From NCBI RefSeq assembly GCF_053078305.1, contig NZ_CP166879.1: 64,000 bases of DNA; one strand, written 5' to 3'. Numbering within the stretch: the stretch's first letter is position 1; each line of letters begins with the position of its first letter. Of this stretch, positions 3,864 through 28,972 are shown in pieces. The notes under the pieces were generated by a model. That model saw only the letters and a list, made by a program, of their open reading frames with translations. It made no database searches and was not told the origin of the DNA. The position numbers were made by a program, and so were the translations under genes.

Positions 3864-6026
3864 TTATTTCGCATCCGACTTATATTCGTATTCGTAATAG
3901 CCATAATCCTGATACGCGCTGGCGCGGCGGAAGATGGAGTTCAGAATCACCCCTTTCACCGGAATACCATTTTGCTCAAAGCGGCTCAGACTGGTTTCCA
4001 CTTCTTTCAATGTGTTGACCGCATAACGCGCCACCATTAACGTGGTTCCGACATGACGACCAACAATTGCGGCATCGGTCACTGCCAGAATCGGCGGCGT
4101 ATCAATCAACACCAGGTCGTAGTTTTTACTCGCCCAGTTCACCAGTTCGGCAAAGCGTTCGCTCATCAACAATTCAGAAGGATTTGGCGGTACCTGACCG
4201 CGCGGGATCAGGTCAAATTTGGCAATCGAAGTGGGTTTAGCAGCGGTAGTAATATCGCCCTGACCAATCAGAATTTCCGACAGGCCATTGACGTTATTGG
4301 TGCCCAACAGCTCGTGGGTGTAGCCTTTGCGCATATCGCAGTCGATCAACAATACGCGTTTATTAGTCTGGCTAATGACCGCCGCCAGGTTAGCGCAGAC
4401 AAAGGTTTTACCGATTGACGGGCTAACCCCGGTCATCATCAACACATTGTTCTGCGCCTGCATCATCGCGAAGTGCAGACTGGTACGCAGACTGCGGATG
4501 GCTTCAATCGCCAGATCGGTTGGATTCCCCACCGCCAGTAGCTGGCTCTGTTTATAGCGTTTAACTCCTTTGATGGTTTTGACGCTATCGCGCGCTTTCT
4601 GCCATTCCGACAACGGGATGCTGGCATAGACGCTGATACCGTGTTCTTCCAGCACTTGCGGGCTTTCAATGCCGCGATTAAACAACGAGCGCAGCAGTAC
4701 ACCCACGATAGAGAGCATCAGGCCGAGGATAATCGCCCCAAGGATAATCAGCCCTTTCTTCGGTTTCAGTACACCTGGCTGGGTGATTGCCGGGTCAACA
4801 ATGCGCACATCGCCGACGGTGCTGGCCTCGGTGATTTTCAGCTCCTGCTCTTTATTCAGCAGTTGCATATAGACCTGCTGACCAGACTCGACATCGCGGG
4901 TCAGACGCACAATTTCCTGCTGGGTTTTCGGCATCGCCGTTACGCGACCATTAAGTTTGGCTTTTTCGTCTTCCAGCGCCTGCCGTTTCTCCAGCAGCGT
5001 GCGGTACGCCGGGTGAACTTTGGTGTACAGCTTGGAGATTTCCGCCTCTTTAAAGGTCAGTTCGTTCAACTGCGCGTCGATGTTCACCATCGAATCGAGC
5101 ACCGCTTTCGCTTCCAGCGGCAGATCAACAGAATCTTTATCCTGACGGAAGGCATTCAGTTTGTTTTCGGCAACATCAAGGCGGCTACGTACTTCCGGTA
5201 ACTGTTGCGCGAGGAAAGCGAGACTTTTCGACGCTTCCGCCGATTTGCGCTCAATATTTTGTTCCTGATAGTTACGGGCGATGCTGTTAAGAATGTCGCG
5301 GATCTGTTCGCGATCTTCACCGGTATAAGTCAGGCTCAGTACGCCTGCGTCTTTGCCGTTCTCCGTTACCGTCAGGCTGTTTTGCAGTTGATTGATCATC
5401 CCCAGCGTGGAGTATTTGGTGACGGTAAACTCACTGCCCGGGCTGGCGTGAATGGCTTCAACCATCAGTGTGACGCCTTCTTTTTTCAGCATCTGGCCCG
5501 CTTGCCCACGGGCGCTAAAGCCGCCATCACTGCTCAGGGTGTAGTTTTTGTCATCCAGCACATTAAGCGTAAACACCTGATCCGCCATCTCTTTCGGACG
5601 GTTAAAGGTAGTCACTTTCACCGTCTCGTTCTGGCGTCCCATCAGGCGATCCCAGCCCGCACCGAAAATCGGGAACGTGTTTTTGCTCACCGCAATATCG
5701 AGGTCGAGATCGTCCACCGTTTTACCAAGCACCAGGCGCGAACGAATCAACTGGATCTCGGCGTCCGATGCTGGCGGTTTGTTGGCTAACGCCGATCCGA
5801 TATCCTGCACTAACGAATTGCCGCTGCTTTGCTCGATTTGTACCAGTGCGTCGGCACTATAAATCGGCGTGGCGAAGAAGGTGTAAACCACGGCACAAAG
5901 GGCGAATACAGCGGTGATGCCAATCACCCACCAGCGCGCTTCAATGACGGTGCCGACCAGGCGACCAATATCGATTTCATCACTGCCCGTTACCGGAGCG
6001 GCATGTTGTTTTACTTTTTCTGTCAT
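3864..6026 (-). CDS. wzc: tyrosine autokinase / polysaccharide co-polymerase Wzc
   Basis: ORF 3864-6062. From MTEKVKQHAAPVTGSDEIDIG (720 aa) it matches K-12 Wzc. It has Walker A GVSPSIGKT and a C-terminal Tyr cluster YQDYGYYEYEY. Confidence 0.95.
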   Translation of the reverse strand: MTEKVKQHAAPVTGSDEIDIGRLVGTVIEARWWVIGITAVFALCAVVYTFFATPIYSADALVQIEQSSGNSLVQDIGSALANKPPASDAEIQLIRSRLVLGKTVDDLDLDIAVSKNTFPIFGAGWDRLMGRQNETVKVTTFNRPKEMADQVFTLNVLDDKNYTLSSDGGFSARGQAGQMLKKEGVTLMVEAIHASPGSEFTVTKYSTLGMINQLQNSLTVTENGKDAGVLSLTYTGEDREQIRDILNSIARNYQEQNIERKSAEASKSLAFLAQQLPEVRSRLDVAENKLNAFRQDKDSVDLPLEAKAVLDSMVNIDAQLNELTFKEAEISKLYTKVHPAYRTLLEKRQALEDEKAKLNGRVTAMPKTQQEIVRLTRDVESGQQVYMQLLNKEQELKITEASTVGDVRIVDPAITQPGVLKPKKGLIILGAIILGLMLSIVGVLLRSLFNRGIESPQVLEEHGISVYASIPLSEWQKARDSVKTIKGVKRYKQSQLLAVGNPTDLAIEAIRSLRTSLHFAMMQAQNNVLMMTGVSPSIGKTFVCANLAAVISQTNKRVLLIDCDMRKGYTHELLGTNNVNGLSEILIGQGDITTAAKPTSIAKFDLIPRGQVPPNPSELLMSERFAELVNWASKNYDLVLIDTPPILAVTDAAIVGRHVGTTLMVARYAVNTLKEVETSLSRFEQNGIPVKGVILNSIFRRASAYQDYGYYEYEYKSDAK

Positions 6027-24166: not shown

Positions 24167-25755
24167 TGGGACGCATAATTGATCTTGACGGAAAACCTTT
24201 CTCCTTTGACCCGGAGATGCAGAGTGCCGTGCTGGATATTCCGCAGATTGCCAGCCGTTATATTGAGCATCCGGCCTCGGGTATCACCCCGAACCGGGCG
24301 GCACAGTGCCTTCGCGGGGCTGAACGTGGCGATCTGATTGCCCAGTCCGATCTGGCCGCTGACATTGAAGAAAAGGATACCCATCTTTTTGCAGAGCTGG
24401 GCAAGCGACGTCTTGCCATTCAGGGGGTGCCCTGGAGTATTGAGCCGCCCCCGAACGCCAGCGCGAATGAGAAAAAGGACGCGGAAATGCTCGACGAATA
24501 CCTGCATTCCGCCGACTGGTTTGATGCCATGCTGTTTGATGCCACCGATGCCATCCTGAAAGGCTATTCCTGCATGGAGATTGAGCACGGGATGCTCGGT
24601 AAAATGCACATCATCCGCGCCATCCGCTGGCGTGACAGCGGGCATTTCTGCCTTAACCCGGATGATTTGAGCGAACTGCGGCTGCGTGACGGCAGCCATG
24701 CCGGGGTGGCGTTTCAGCCCTTTGGCTGGATAGTGCATCAGTCACGTTCACGCACCGGTTACGGCGGCGCAACAGGGCTTGTCAGAACGCTTATCTGGCC
24801 GTTCATTTTCAAAAACTATTCCGTGCGCGATCTGGCTGAATTTCTGGAGGTGTACGGCCTGCCGATGAAGGTCGGTAAATACCCGTCCGGGGCAACACCG
24901 GAGCAGAAAAGCGCCCTGATGCGGGCGGTGATGGATATCGGGCGACGTACAGGCGGGATCATCCCGGCCGGGATGTCGCTGGAGTTTCAGGCAGCCGCGA
25001 ACGGTCAGGCCGATCCGTTTGAAACCATGATTTCGTGGGGGGAGCGTTCCATCTCCAAAGCAATACTCGGCGGCACGCTGACCACGGAAGCCGGAGACAA
25101 AGGCGCGCGCTCGCTGGGTGAAGTGCATAACGAGGTGCGCCGGGAAATCAGGGATTCTGATTTACGCCAGCTGGCCGCCACGCTGAACCGCGATCTGGTG
25201 TATCCGCTGTATGCCCTGAACACCGCCCACGCCATTGATATCCGTCGCCTGCCGCGTATCTGTTTCCAGACAAAAGAGCCGGGGGATATCACCAAAATCA
25301 CCAGTGCGGTGATGCAGCTCAGTACGGGGATGGATATTCCTGATCCCTGGATAAGGGAGCAGACCGGTATTCCGCAGCCCACGCCCGGTGAAGCCATCTT
25401 CCGTGTCCGTCAGAGTGGAAATGAACCTGCTCAGACAGACAAAGAGATGCCACCGGAAAAACAGGAGAAGACAGAGCAGACAGCGCTGGCTGCCAGACTG
25501 CCGGAAGCGAAAAGCAGCCCCCGTGATGAACTGGACGACATGGGGGATGCGGTGCCTGCCCGCCGGTTACAGGAGGCCATCGACCCGCTACTGGAGCCGG
25601 TCATTGATGCCATCAGAACGCGGGGGCTGGCGGAGGCACTGGCAGACCTGCCCGCCCTTTACCGTGAAATGGATGATTCCCGCCTGATGACGCTGCTCAG
25701 TGATGCCATGTTTGCTGCGGAAATGAAGGGGATGCTGGATGGCACAGGGGATTGA
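24157..25755 (+). CDS. portal protein (Mu gp29/H-like)
   Basis: 532 aa. Position and size match the Mu portal. GTG start overlaps the terminase stop. Confidence 0.85.
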   Translation: MLVVGRIIDLDGKPFSFDPEMQSAVLDIPQIASRYIEHPASGITPNRAAQCLRGAERGDLIAQSDLAADIEEKDTHLFAELGKRRLAIQGVPWSIEPPPNASANEKKDAEMLDEYLHSADWFDAMLFDATDAILKGYSCMEIEHGMLGKMHIIRAIRWRDSGHFCLNPDDLSELRLRDGSHAGVAFQPFGWIVHQSRSRTGYGGATGLVRTLIWPFIFKNYSVRDLAEFLEVYGLPMKVGKYPSGATPEQKSALMRAVMDIGRRTGGIIPAGMSLEFQAAANGQADPFETMISWGERSISKAILGGTLTTEAGDKGARSLGEVHNEVRREIRDSDLRQLAATLNRDLVYPLYALNTAHAIDIRRLPRICFQTKEPGDITKITSAVMQLSTGMDIPDPWIREQTGIPQPTPGEAIFRVRQSGNEPAQTDKEMPPEKQEKTEQTALAARLPEAKSSPRDELDDMGDAVPARRLQEAIDPLLEPVIDAIRTRGLAEALADLPALYREMDDSRLMTLLSDAMFAAEMKGMLDGTGD

Positions 25756-27064
25756 TTTAGGTTATGCCGCCACCCTTCCCTCAAAAGAGGCGGTGGCATA
25801 CTTCCGCGCCAAAGGGGCGCATATCAGCTGGAACTGGTTCGAAACAGACGCGGATGTTCATGCCCGTTCATTCACGGCGGCAAAAGCGGCACGCCTGGAC
25901 GTACTGACTACACTACAGGCGGAAGTGCAACGGGCTATTGATGAGGGGATTTCACAGAAAGCATTTATCCGCACACTGACCCCCCGCCTGCAAAAGCTGG
26001 GATGGTGGGGAAAGCAGATTGTGGTGGACAGCGCTGGTAACGCAGAAGAAGTGCAGCTGGGCAGTCCCCGCCGTCTGGCGCTGATTTACAACGTGAACAC
26101 CCGCGTGGCTTACAATGCCGGGCGTTACACGCAGATGATGAACAACACGGACACGCATCCGTTCTGGCAGTATGTGGCGGTGATGGACAGCCGCACCCGC
26201 CCGGCGCATTCCGCCCTTAACGGGCTGGTATTCCGCTATGACGATCCGTTCTGGAAAACACACTACCCGCCCAATGGCTGGAACTGCCGCTGCCGTGTCC
26301 GGCCATTGTCTCAGGCCCGTCTGGATGCGATGGGGCTGTCTGTTTCATCCGGTCAGGATCATCTCTCCACCCGCAATGTTGAGGCTGGCGTGGATAAGCA
26401 GACCGGGGAAGTCAGAGAAATGCCGGTGACCACATATTCAGATGGCACCAGAACCATGACACCGGATGTGGGCTGGTCATATAACCCCGGTTCGGCGGCG
26501 TTCGGCACAGACCAGGCGCTGATCCGTAAACTGATCGAGGTGAAAAGCCCGGCGTTACGGGAAATGGTGGTTCAGGAGATGAACAACAGCCCGGAGCGGC
26601 AGCTGGCGTTCCGCATCTGGGCAAAAAACATCATGAAAACCCGGCGAGGCGGTAACGATATCCGCACGCTGGGCTTTATGACCGAAAGTATTGCGCAGGC
26701 GGTGGAAAGCCGGACGGGAACGCCACCGGCCCGCCTGCTGGCGATGAGCGGTAAAAATGTGCTCCATGCGGACAGCGTGAAACATCAGAATGACGGTATC
26801 GCCCTGACGCCGGAGGATTTCGCGCAGTTTCCCGCCATGCTGGCTGCCCCCGATGCCGTGCTGTGGGATCATGTCCATCAGAACTTGCTTTACATCACTG
26901 AAACCCGTGACGGAACGGCAAAGATTGCCGTCAATGCGCCTTATAGTGTGAAACGTCAGCCGGATAAGCTGGATGTGGTGATTAATGCCTATAGAGTGAG
27001 CAGGAATACTCTGATTGATGCTGTTCAGGGAGGTAAGATGGAGATCCTCGAAGGGAAATTGTAA
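25739..27064 (+). CDS. head morphogenesis protein (Mu F/gp30-like)
   Basis: 441 aa. RTRPAHSALNGLVFRYDDPFWKTHYPPNGWNCRCRV is the conserved Mu-F/SPP1-gp7 family motif. Confidence 0.85.
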   Translation: MAQGIDLGYAATLPSKEAVAYFRAKGAHISWNWFETDADVHARSFTAAKAARLDVLTTLQAEVQRAIDEGISQKAFIRTLTPRLQKLGWWGKQIVVDSAGNAEEVQLGSPRRLALIYNVNTRVAYNAGRYTQMMNNTDTHPFWQYVAVMDSRTRPAHSALNGLVFRYDDPFWKTHYPPNGWNCRCRVRPLSQARLDAMGLSVSSGQDHLSTRNVEAGVDKQTGEVREMPVTTYSDGTRTMTPDVGWSYNPGSAAFGTDQALIRKLIEVKSPALREMVVQEMNNSPERQLAFRIWAKNIMKTRRGGNDIRTLGFMTESIAQAVESRTGTPPARLLAMSGKNVLHADSVKHQNDGIALTPEDFAQFPAMLAAPDAVLWDHVHQNLLYITETRDGTAKIAVNAPYSVKRQPDKLDVVINAYRVSRNTLIDAVQGGKMEILEGKL

Positions 27065-27151
27065 GTCGGTGGTGGGGGTCGAACCCACATAAACATCCTT
27101 CGGGTGAAGATATCCCTCAGGTGCCGCTTTACCAGTTAAGAGTACACCGAC
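27064..27151 (-). ncRNA. tRNA-like element (88 nt) with canonical acceptor stem and T-arm but non-canonical D/anticodon core
   Basis: The minus strand reads GTCGGTG-TA-[54 nt]-GTGGG-TTCGACC-CCCAC-CACCGAC-T. It has a 7/7-bp acceptor stem, a 5-bp T stem, a T-loop of TTCGANN type, and a D-loop-like TAACTGGTAA with GG. The best anticodon-like hairpin is ATCTT-CACCCGA-AGGAT, with A instead of U at position 33. No CCA is encoded. Confidence 0.5.
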
Positions 27152-27189
27152 CTGCTTTTATTTTAACCAGGTAGTTTCACGGAGGCAAT

Positions 27190-27663
27190 ATGTCATCCAT
27201 TGATGCCGCTGTCGTTGTTGACGTTACGCGTCTCCAGCGGGTCTTTGCCCGGCTTCAGTTTGTGGGTGGTGGAAAAGACCTGGCCCGCAGTGTGGCGGCG
27301 AGTCTTCTGTCATCGTCAGAAATGGCGTTTGAACAGGAAAAAGAGCCGGACGGCGAACGCTGGCATGACTGGTCAGATCCTTACCGCAAGTGGCGTACCC
27401 GTAAGGGATACATGCCCGGCAAAATCCTGACGCTGAACGGCGATCTGGCCCGACGCCTGACCACGGATTATGGAGATACCTGGGCGCTGATTGGATCAAA
27501 TGAGCCTTATGCGGCCATTCATCAGTGGGGTGGCCTGCCAGGTATGCCGCCTGGACCGGCGGCCATTGGTGCACGTCCGTATATGGGCTTTGATCAGGTG
27601 GCAGAGCAGGAGATCATGGACGAAATCAGAAAACGCTTTAAAAAGGCCACAGAAACGCCTTAA
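27190..27663 (+). CDS. virion morphogenesis protein (Mu G/gp31-like)
   Basis: 157 aa. Size and position match Mu G. The motif PYAAIHQWGG is typical of the family. Confidence 0.8.
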   Translation: MSSIDAAVVVDVTRLQRVFARLQFVGGGKDLARSVAASLLSSSEMAFEQEKEPDGERWHDWSDPYRKWRTRKGYMPGKILTLNGDLARRLTTDYGDTWALIGSNEPYAAIHQWGGLPGMPPGPAAIGARPYMGFDQVAEQEIMDEIRKRFKKATETP

Positions 27664-27773
27664 TTGTTTAAGGTATGCAAATGCATTACCTTACCCCCTT
27701 CAGGCGCGTGTCGTGATTTTCTAACCTGTATTTAACGGGCTTTAAAATCTGCGTGAAGCGCCTTTGCATTTTT

Positions 27774-27818
27774 CCCTGAAAATACTTCCTGAAATCCCGC
27801 AAAACCCGCCCTGAAAAT
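27774..27818 (+). promoter_or_regulatory. candidate late-promoter/activator region upstream of the protease-scaffold gene (direct repeats)
   Basis: CCCTGAAAAT occurs at 27774-27783 and again at 27809-27818. A third CCTGAAA lies at 27788-27794. All sit in the 175-bp gap where Mu has its C-dependent P(I) promoter. Confidence 0.3.
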
Positions 27819-27838
27819 TCCCGGCTTATGCTGCCGGT

Positions 27839-28972
27839 ATGAAGACAGAAAATCACCCAAAAGACGCAAATCGCCCCTCTGGTTTAGCCGTGCTTTCAGC
27901 TTCGCTGACTGCATCCGGCGACGGATGGTGTCAGTTACTGCCAGCAGGCAGGGTAAAGGCCCGTGACGGTCGCCCGGAAAAACCGGCTGAAGGCTGGCTG
28001 ATTAACGAATCCGCCTGCAACCGGATGAAAGCCGGGCTTTCCGCCCTGAATCAGCCGTTACTGATTGATTATGACCATCACTCCATGAATGCGCGGAAAA
28101 ACGGATTCAAGGCCATTGCCGCAGGTTGGGTTAAGCCGGAAAACATCGAATGGCGTGAGGGTCAGGGGATTTTCATTAAACCTGAATGGACGCCGCAGGC
28201 CCAAAAACATATTGATGACCGTGAATATGCCTATCTGTCTGCGTATATGCATTATTTCGCTGACACCGGGGAACCCTACCTGTTGCGCATGGCTTCCCTG
28301 ACGAATGATCCAGGTATTACGGGTATGAACCCTGTCGCAGCACTCAGTGCTGACGATCTCTATGTAGTTTCCCCTTCTCAGGAGCAACACCCCATGAATG
28401 AGCAATTACGCCAGTTGCTGACGGCGCTCGGTCTGACCGTGGCTGATGGTGACGAATTTACGCCGGAGCTGGGCACGGCAGCGCTGTCTGCCCTCACCGG
28501 GATCAAAACCCGTGCGGATGCACACGACAACCTGAAAACACAGGTCGCCTGTCTGTCGGCAGAGCTGGAAACTGCAAAAGGCACACCGGCTGGCGGCAGT
28601 ATTGATCTGACGAAATACGTGCCCGTTGAAACGTATAACGCCCTGCGTACCGAATACGTTGCGCTGTCGGCGCAGCACGGCAGCACCACGCTGGAGCAGT
28701 TGCTGGACAAGGCCGAGTCCGAAGGACGCATCTTCAAAAGTGAACGCGGCTATCTGGAACAACTGGGCGGGCAGATTGGCGTGGCGGCACTTTCTGCACA
28801 GCTTGACGCCCGACAGCCGGTTGCGGCCCTGACCGGTCTTCAGACCGACACCGTGACCGTGCCGGATAAAAAGACTGCCACCGCTGTGCTGTCGGCTGAA
28901 GATATCGCGGCCGCCAAACTGCTGGGTAAAACCGAAGCCGAGTTCCTGAAAATGAAAGAGGAAATGCAATAA
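27839..28972 (+). CDS. head protease / scaffold protein (Mu I/gp32-like)
   Basis: 377 aa. The N-terminal region (WCQLLPAGRVKARDGRP...LLIDYDHHS) matches the Mu-I protease family, with an Ala-rich coiled-coil C-terminal scaffold part. Confidence 0.85.
   Translation: MKTENHPKDANRPSGLAVLSASLTASGDGWCQLLPAGRVKARDGRPEKPAEGWLINESACNRMKAGLSALNQPLLIDYDHHSMNARKNGFKAIAAGWVKPENIEWREGQGIFIKPEWTPQAQKHIDDREYAYLSAYMHYFADTGEPYLLRMASLTNDPGITGMNPVAALSADDLYVVSPSQEQHPMNEQLRQLLTALGLTVADGDEFTPELGTAALSALTGIKTRADAHDNLKTQVACLSAELETAKGTPAGGSIDLTKYVPVETYNALRTEYVALSAQHGSTTLEQLLDKAESEGRIFKSERGYLEQLGGQIGVAALSAQLDARQPVAALTGLQTDTVTVPDKKTATAVLSAEDIAAAKLLGKTEAEFLKMKEEMQ

Follow-up and report, generated by a model that had tools for sequence, protein, structure and literature searches.

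A conserved antisense tRNA-like element without an anticodon arm at the F-G junction of Mu-like prophages

The F-G junction and the fold of the element

The window, a stretch of 64,000 nucleotides from contig NZ_CP166879.1 (assembly GCF_053078305.1) that is identical in sequence to E. coli STEC2018-607 (NZ_CP075697.1), contains a Mu-like prophage of E. coli at about positions 9300-44000, beside a truncated cellulose-synthase gene. A gap of 125 bp separates the F-like from the G-like gene of this prophage, and a tRNA-like element occupies the minus strand of the gap. The size of the gap and the antisense orientation of the element relative to the late operon, both of which had been described in an earlier note made from the sequence alone, are borne out by the coordinates of the open reading frames and by the minus-strand placement, respectively. 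The element is very probably a functional RNA gene that has the shape of a tRNA and does not take part in decoding. From 27151 to 27064, the minus strand reads GTCGGTG-TA-CTCT-TAACTGGTAA-AGCG-[36 nt]-GTGGG-TTCGACC-CCCAC-CACCGAC-T, and the parts of the predicted RNA and the two flanking genes are arranged as follows.

25739-27064: F-like head-morphogenesis open reading frame, with the stop codon TAA at 27062-27064
27190-27663: G-like virion-morphogenesis open reading frame, with the start codon at 27190
27063-27153, minus strand: predicted RNA in full, about 91 nt, beginning with the A at 27153 (predicted start of transcription) and ending with the 3' strand of the terminal helix
27145-27153, minus strand: 5' half of the 9-bp terminal helix (positions -2 to 7), AGGUCGGUG
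27143-27144, minus strand: U8 and A9
27125-27142, minus strand: D arm, with the stem CUCU/AGCG, in which one pair is a U x C mismatch, and the loop UAACUGGUAA, which includes G18 and G19
27093-27124, minus strand: central arm in place of the anticodon arm, a long interrupted hairpin
27089-27092, minus strand: short variable loop, UUAU
27072-27088, minus strand: T arm, GUGGG-UUCGACC-CCCAC
27063-27071, minus strand: 3' strand of the terminal helix, CACCGACUU

The outer parts of this fold had been recognized before. The acceptor stem of 7/7 bp, U8-A9, the D loop, the 5-bp T stem with its canonical loop, and the 54 nt that separate position 9 from the T arm were all found again in the minus-strand sequence. 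The core had been called aberrant, which is correct in so far as a canonical anticodon arm is missing; a D stem, which had not been recognized in canonical form, is present and consists of the pairs C-G, U x C, C-G and U-A, and the mismatched pair of the window is G.U or G-C in other lineages. The hairpin ATCTT/CACCCGA/AGGAT with the anticodon CCC had to be abandoned in favour of one long arm of variable sequence without an anticodon loop, which is supported by relatives from the lineage of the window element. According to the folding and the relatives, this arm is built from GCA/UGU, a bulged A, CCU/AGG, a tandem G.A, GGG/CCC and a 9-nt loop, AUAUCUUCA. The base that had been taken for a discriminator is a U that pairs with G-1, and U74 pairs with A-2, resulting in a terminal helix of 9 bp. 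This helix does not abut the stop codon of F, as had been proposed, but instead overlaps it by 2 nt, the final two bases of CACCGACUU being complementary to the second and third bases of the TAA.

Scoring with the Rfam covariance models and with ARAGORN, which the earlier note had suggested, placed the element at the margin of what is called a tRNA. The Rfam tRNA model (RF00005) yielded a full-length match at 27064-27151 on the minus strand that covers model positions 1-71 and scores 30.0 bits, above the gathering score of 29 (E = 1.9e-4 for the 401 nt searched); the match is marginal, and an insertion of 26 nt replaces the inner anticodon arm. Relatives of the element reach 31-34 bits over the full length or stay below the threshold. 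ARAGORN called neither a tRNA nor a transfer-messenger RNA (tmRNA) in the window and called nothing in 15 varied relatives; its silence on the window is expected because the anticodon arm is missing. In permissive Rfam scans (E up to 10 or up to 0.1), tRNA was the only family that matched at the element, with C4, tmRNA and Y RNA absent, and the chance matches in these scans included sR55 (15 bits) and the rnk leader (34 vs 55 bits). In the RefSeq annotation of E. coli STEC2018-607, produced by the Prokaryotic Genome Annotation Pipeline (PGAP), exactly these 88 nt are labelled tRNA-OTHER. The element shares with tRNAs the acceptor stem, U8, the D arm with G18 and G19, and the T arm with its UUCRA loop. 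The window element lacks an anticodon stem of 5 bp that carries a loop of 7 nt (U33, anticodon, R37), and it also lacks a single-stranded discriminator and an encoded CCA, position 73 being paired. Because it has neither the anticodon arm nor the free acceptor end of a tRNA, the element should not be filed as one.

Covariation, distribution and mobility of the family

Relatives were sought in complete E. coli genomes, IMG/VR, metagenomes and GTDB, using BLAST, sequence patterns and a covariance model of our own (R1), which matches the window at 27060-27155 with 97.4 bits. A search for the element in other Mu-like prophages and for compensatory changes, as proposed earlier, yielded 44 distinct sequences, which were pooled and fitted to the model, and compensatory pairing was found among them. 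In this alignment, 95.3% of the stem cells pair, 14 of the 18 pairs have changed on both sides, and the covariation score is 0.571, compared with 0.201 +/- 0.013 in shuffled alignments, none of 500 of which reached the observed score; it should be noted that the fitting of related sequences to a model inflates such covariation counts somewhat. When the registers were slid by 1-3 columns, pairing amounted to merely 38-47%, and a MAFFT alignment of 12 sequences gave the same picture as the fitted one. The T stem is 99.1% paired and has three covarying pairs, the D-stem pairs covary in distant members (CGAA/UUCG), and hardly any variation occurs in the D loop UAACUGGUAA, in U8-A9 or in the T-loop core GGUUCGA. 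Read as minus-strand RNA, the alignment contains 30 G.U and 5 A.C cells, and this excess of G.U indicates that the selected fold is that of the minus-strand RNA.

The distant members of the family lie at the same F-G junction, in phages in which F is 45-62% and G is 30-58% identical to the respective gene of the window. The compensatory pairing would not survive such divergence of F and G in a pseudogene, and therefore the suggestion that the element is a decaying tRNA can be set aside. Among the complete E. coli genomes, 230 of 5426 carry the element. All but one of the 40 E. coli matches listed are in a Mu-like F-G setting, usually under the label tRNA-OTHER, and none of these 40 is a host tRNA gene, which argues against a host tRNA fragment picked up by chance. 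A strict pattern scan of the GTDB genomes, with a pattern that was too narrow, returned matches in Citrobacter braakii only. Two T-loop variants of the commonest E. coli type were seen: in six contigs (L088, L090, L093, L096, L099 and L100), A58 is changed to C (UUCGCCC), and in L007, L034 and L037, G57 is changed to A (UUCAACC), the latter copies not being annotated as tRNA-OTHER by PGAP. With C at position 58, the T54-A58 pair would be lost, and copies with this change may be decaying.

Presence of the element is polymorphic. Mu itself, which had been stated to have no tRNA, lacks the element, F and G of Mu overlapping at ATGA without any gap, and the element was likewise not found in D108, SfMu or the Mu group in IMG/VR. 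In L109, a relative with a G gene that is 65% identical, the F stop codon TAA is directly followed by GGAGGCAATATG, and this comparison defines a cassette of about 117 bp that consists of the 88-nt RNA gene and 29 nt of promoter. Other Mu-like F-G junctions are empty in the same way. In a large subgroup of Mu-like phages, the cassette is inserted precisely between the stop codon of F and the ribosome-binding site of G. It was found at 18 of 70 further Mu-like F-G junctions, always in antisense orientation and with its end 35-45 nt before G. Multiple copies also occur, namely two each in L190 and L161 and three in tandem in L298, and each copy has its own -10 hexamer.

The three tandem antisense tRNA-like genes of L298 (positions 324-636; IMGVR_UViG_2568526488_000001) lie upstream of a G homologue. 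The distal one is classified as tRNA-Lys(UUU) by ARAGORN and has an odd loop, CCUUUGG, which lacks U33 and can close to a triloop; this third copy was the sole ARAGORN call at 60 F-G junctions. Because it is still scored as tRNA-Lys(UUU), its sequence suggests that the element may have descended from real tRNA genes at the F-G site. Several anticodon nucleases target tRNA-Lys(UUU).

Several of the rearranged copies could also be taken as the traces of a relic, or of a recombination linker or integration target between the head and the neck modules, that has no function as an RNA. The duplications in L190 and L161 include C-terminal fragments of F, and a copy in a pheV island is located between integrase genes. 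However, the compensatory changes and the G.U bias indicate a selected RNA fold, the -10 box has been kept in all lineages, and among the E. coli matches listed nothing has integrated into the element with the exception of one IS66 case, so that we regard an explanation by recombination as very improbable. The pheV-island copy is a degenerate cassette in E. coli Ch1 (L008:2998-3086 and 5500-5560), outside any Mu-like phage, that sits between a complete and a truncated tyrosine recombinase gene. It has been split in the D arm by an IS66 insertion sequence (ISEc8), with an 8-bp target duplication, AGTTAAGA. This copy, which carries the same TAAAAT promoter, shows that the cassette can move. The copy was also considered as an attachment (att) site and rejected, because it is degenerate and split by IS66 and its acceptor strands do not pair even when the insertion sequence is removed.

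In every lineage, a hairpin of about 19-50 nt stands in for the anticodon arm, and its stems have been kept while its loops have drifted. One set of loops comprises ACCC-UCAG/UCCG/UUCG/UCAA-GGGU, a second opposes CCC-UUCG-GGG to CCCC-ACAACA-GGGG and CCCC-AGU-GGGG, and a third opposes CGG-UUCG-CCG to CGG-CUCU-CCG; U6 loops and loops of 9-10 nt also serve as caps, and the UNCG tetraloop is frequent. A variable arm flanked by conserved scaffolds would be expected of a riboregulator of the type of C4 of P1/P7 or CI of P4, which are phage immunity RNAs matured by RNase P. The tRNA-like body would then ensure processing and stability, and the central arm would confer specificity by base-pairing with a phage or host target. 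Within the 64-kb window, the arm has one complementary 11-mer and two 10-mers, compared with about 0.9 and 3.5 expected by our own estimate, which is chance level. One match concerns the loop itself: TGAAGATATC at 28897-28906 on the plus strand, near the end of gene I and about 70 nt before the start codon of T, forms a perfect complement of 10 nt to the 9-nt loop at the tip of the central arm, and it too is within chance expectation. In addition, the element has no match to C4 in Rfam, and in many lineages a UNCG-type tetraloop on a fully paired arm leaves no seed for pairing, all of which makes a riboregulator of this type quite improbable.

Terminal helix, predicted promoter and position beside G

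The terminal helix comprises 9 bp in the window and about 6-15 bp in other lineages, and 97.9% of it is paired. The -1:73 pair is never unpaired in 43 of the 44 sequences (GC 22, AU 15, GU 3, others 3), with a gap in the remaining one, and the -2:74 pair forms in 39 of 44 and covaries (AU 17, CG 13, UA 3, GC 2, GU/UG 4). No CCA is encoded after the helix. The pair G-1:C73 is a hallmark of tRNA-His, and its presence in 22 of 43 members, the intact acceptor/T minihelix and elbow, and the L298 tandem copy with its tRNA-Lys(UUU) score would be compatible with a CCA-tailed, aminoacylated tRNA-like molecule of non-ribosomal use, which RNase P would trim to 7-8 bp and which would be a substrate of histidyl-tRNA synthetase. 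Against this it has to be noted that -1:73 is A:U, U:A or G.U in many lineages, the window having G.U, that the helix extends up to about 15 bp from the predicted start of transcription, that the CCA end is not encoded, and that position 73 varies. We therefore assign a low probability to a charged RNA.

A promoter scan placed two hexamers upstream of the helix.

27183-27188, minus strand: predicted -35 hexamer, TTGCCT
27160-27165, minus strand: predicted -10 hexamer, TAAAAT, the complement of which is the plus-strand ATTTTA within a T-run

Together with a spacer of 17 nt, the hexamers (27188-27160) match the consensus at 9 of 12 positions, and the predicted start of transcription at about 27153 coincides with the first base of the terminal helix. 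Of 28 family members, 27 have a -10-like hexamer (TAAAAT, TATACT, TATAAT or TATATT) near the helix, on its upstream side; where the rows were parsed correctly, the hexamer mostly ends 3-6 nt before the helix, with 9 nt in L130, and some copies have a TG extension. The -35 motif TTGCC[T/C] has been retained in close relatives, and its conservation is partly ancestral, because a relative that is free of the element also carries GGAGGCAAT at the -35 site. The predicted -35 hexamer overlaps the spacer between the Shine-Dalgarno motif of G (GGAGG, 27181-27185) and the G start codon at 27190. From these features we infer the activity of the promoter and the ends of the RNA, which, judged from the sequence, appears to be a primary transcript that starts inside its own closing helix rather than a pre-tRNA with a leader.

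The same region had led to the suggestion that the plus strand could act as an attenuator or long-range terminator in the F-G gap. The plus-strand helix is followed by CUGCUUUUAUUUU, and 88.6% of the stem cells pair also in the plus strand. No terminator was called at the site, however, and the T-rich run CTGCTTTTATTTT is complementary to the conserved minus-strand -10 region and is absent from distant members that have TATACT or TATAAT as their -10 hexamer. In addition, the wobble pairs favour the minus strand, and no separate promoter for G appeared in the promoter scan. Termination on the plus strand is thus extremely improbable. An antisense open reading frame of 177 aa (26555-27088) that starts in the T arm was also considered and judged spurious: it is 35 amino acids long in a 92% identical relative and absent elsewhere.

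The location of the element deserves a separate discussion, because its position and antisense orientation between F and G are fixed in almost all members. The RNA is perfectly complementary to the F-G intercistronic mRNA, its promoter overlaps the ribosome-binding site and the start of G, and the cassette uncouples two genes that overlap in Mu. These features would fit a cis-acting antisense regulator of F and G that operates via cleavage of the duplex by RNase III, via collision of polymerases, or via occlusion of the ribosome-binding site of G. Nevertheless, pairing with the mRNA needs none of the nucleotides of tRNA tertiary structure, yet G18, G19, U8 and the T-loop core are nearly invariant and the stems covary. 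Furthermore, tandem copies exist, and relatives thrive without the element. A further case is a rearranged mini-Mu (L117, L131 and L127) that has lost F and G and has kept the element together with its promoter and a helix some 15 bp long, in which the differences between the contigs are G.U-compatible. Because the element was retained there in the absence of both genes, a purely cis role in the expression of F and G is disfavoured, and regulation of this kind, including transcription interference, is in our judgement distinctly unlikely.

The mini-Mu or satellite-like element (L117:2300-14300) encodes an rve transposase, an AAA_22 ATPase, Mor and a homologue of the gpT capsid protein (45% identical). 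Its element adjoins two PADLOC candidate defence genes, PDC-S06 (786 aa) and PDC-S31 (DUF2971), and the tRNA-like gene immediately precedes the DUF2971 gene and shares its strand.

Relation to known RNAs and a possible mode of action

The element has the same cloverleaf body and the same D-loop and T-loop motifs as the tRNAs of phages such as T4 and the T5-like phages. The tRNA-Gln and tRNA-Glu genes of T5-like phages in IMG/VR share AAACTGGTAAAG and GGTTCGA(C/T)CCC with it, and because of these shared motifs a common ancestry with phage tRNAs is probable. Unlike phage tRNAs, the element has no 7-nt anticodon loop, an over-long closed helix, a paired position 73 and no CCA.

Non-decoding relatives of tRNA provide further comparisons. 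The C4 and CI RNAs are small, stable, phage-encoded, tRNA-like and non-decoding, combine a scaffold with variable specificity regions, and act in the immunity region by base pairing between a loop and its target. Unlike these RNAs (RF01695), the element has no covariance-model match, no target beyond chance within the 64-kb window and arms that are capped by tetraloops, and it is located in the head-gene cluster. Like the tRNA-like domain of tmRNA, it mimics a tRNA without an anticodon and possesses the acceptor/T stack and the T loop. In contrast, tmRNA has G3.U70, a free ACCA end and an mRNA-like domain that contains the tag reading frame, and it lacks a D stem. The element shares none of these features; its 3:70 pair is C-G, and ARAGORN finds no tmRNA. 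The bacterial Y RNAs (YrlA) are also non-decoding elbow mimics with D and T arms and serve as protein ligands. The 5' and 3' ends of YrlA form the stem that binds Ro/Rsr at the position of the anticodon stem; the ends of the element, in contrast, form the acceptor-like helix, Rfam gives no match, and no rsr gene is annotated in the prophage.

Pseudomonas Mu-like phages have anti-CRISPR operons beside G, which are small, independently promoted, variably present protein genes on the sense strand. The analogy to the element is positional only, as the element is an antisense RNA gene. With morons the element shares the precise presence or absence between syntenic genes; its own promoter is a predicted one, namely a consensus match that is conserved in position across lineages, and a terminator of its own was not found. 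In its behaviour the element is thus closest to the non-decoding tRNA mimics, and in its genomic logic it is closest to morons. A description of the element was not found in the full-text literature searched, which covered tRNA-like RNAs, Mu-like and transposable phages, prophages, anti-defense, the Sp18 sRNA and tRNA-OTHER.

The options that the earlier note had put forward included a tRNA-like regulatory RNA, and this comes closest to the interpretation proposed here, a genuine tRNA-like element on the minus strand. A sigma-70-type promoter of its own would fire antisense to the late operon, independently of activation by C, and transcription would start at the 5' end of the terminal helix or no more than a few nucleotides away from it. 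The antisense orientation would spare a lysogen from driving the expression of G, I and T. The RNA retains the body of a tRNA, that is, a coaxial stack of the acceptor and T stems, U8, and a GG-bearing D loop that can dock on the T loop to form an elbow. What is needed for decoding and normal charging appears to have been lost, the anticodon arm being a variable hairpin, position 73 being paired within an over-long helix and no CCA being encoded. In trans, an RNA with the shape of a tRNA could serve as ligand or decoy to a protein that reads the elbow and the acceptor/T minihelix and not the anticodon; candidate partners would be a tRNA-targeting toxin, a defence nuclease, or an enzyme that processes or modifies tRNAs. 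The action would be timed to the phases in which the late genes are silent, namely lysogeny or early infection. We infer an action in trans rather than in cis because the mini-Mu keeps the element without F and G and because the tandem copies each have their own -10 hexamer; the identity of the partner is a projection from the parts of the tRNA shape that have been retained.

The chances that this interpretation is right as a whole, that is, that the element is an accessory RNA with the shape of a tRNA which does not decode, acts in trans and probably binds a tRNA-recognizing protein, appear evenly balanced. That it works specifically as a decoy or ligand of a protein is a tentative proposal with somewhat less than an even chance. 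Several observations count against the interpretation, in addition to the inflation of the covariation counts mentioned above. The fixed position beside F and G could reflect a role in cis. Trimming by RNase P to 7 bp, addition of CCA and hence charging may occur. The folding energy is unremarkable (z = -1.4) and typical of tRNAs. The promoter is a consensus match alone, and its -35 hexamer overlaps sequence that is also conserved for the translation of G. No terminator-like site was found on the minus strand in 26700-27500, and the annotation of the prophage contains nothing tRNA-related elsewhere.

The presence of tRNA genes in phages is currently explained by codon supply or by the replacement of host tRNAs that are cut by defence nucleases. 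Here, a tRNA body has been kept under structural selection long after the anticodon and the free acceptor end were lost, and because the body outlasted the anticodon, its value would lie in being recognized as a tRNA shape and not in decoding. Genome pipelines miss the element or label it tRNA-OTHER. With its natural allelic series, empty-site controls and multi-copy variants, the family makes RNA mimicry accessible to study in a compact, testable form within a classic model group of phages, and identification of the protein that the element binds could bring to light a new interaction between phage and host that operates through the recognition of tRNAs. A more far-reaching idea, which we consider rather unlikely, is that Mu-like phages carry dedicated anticodon-less tRNA decoys, with an uncleavable and unchargeable body that neutralizes or triggers tRNA-directed immunity or toxins. 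The targets could include enzymes that recognize the tRNA body and anticodon or acceptor nucleases, and hints in this direction are the tandem arrays, the residual tRNA-Lys(UUU)-like copy and the PADLOC candidates nearby in the mini-Mu. If this were true, an RNA-based module of counter-defence or defence would reside in the same accessory hotspot beside G as the anti-CRISPRs of Pseudomonas phages.

Some further observations concern the prophage at large. It adjoins a PilZ-domain gene that is truncated at the N-terminus and is located directly upstream of bcsB, and because of this truncation and position the insertion of the prophage has probably disrupted the cellulose synthase gene bcsA. One gene of the tail region, a member of the gp436 family, contains an internal stop in the RefSeq annotation. 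A non-coding gap of 175 bp (27664-27838) lies between G and the protease gene I, and at the place that corresponds to this gap, 20 bp past G, the strong gyrase site of Mu is annotated.

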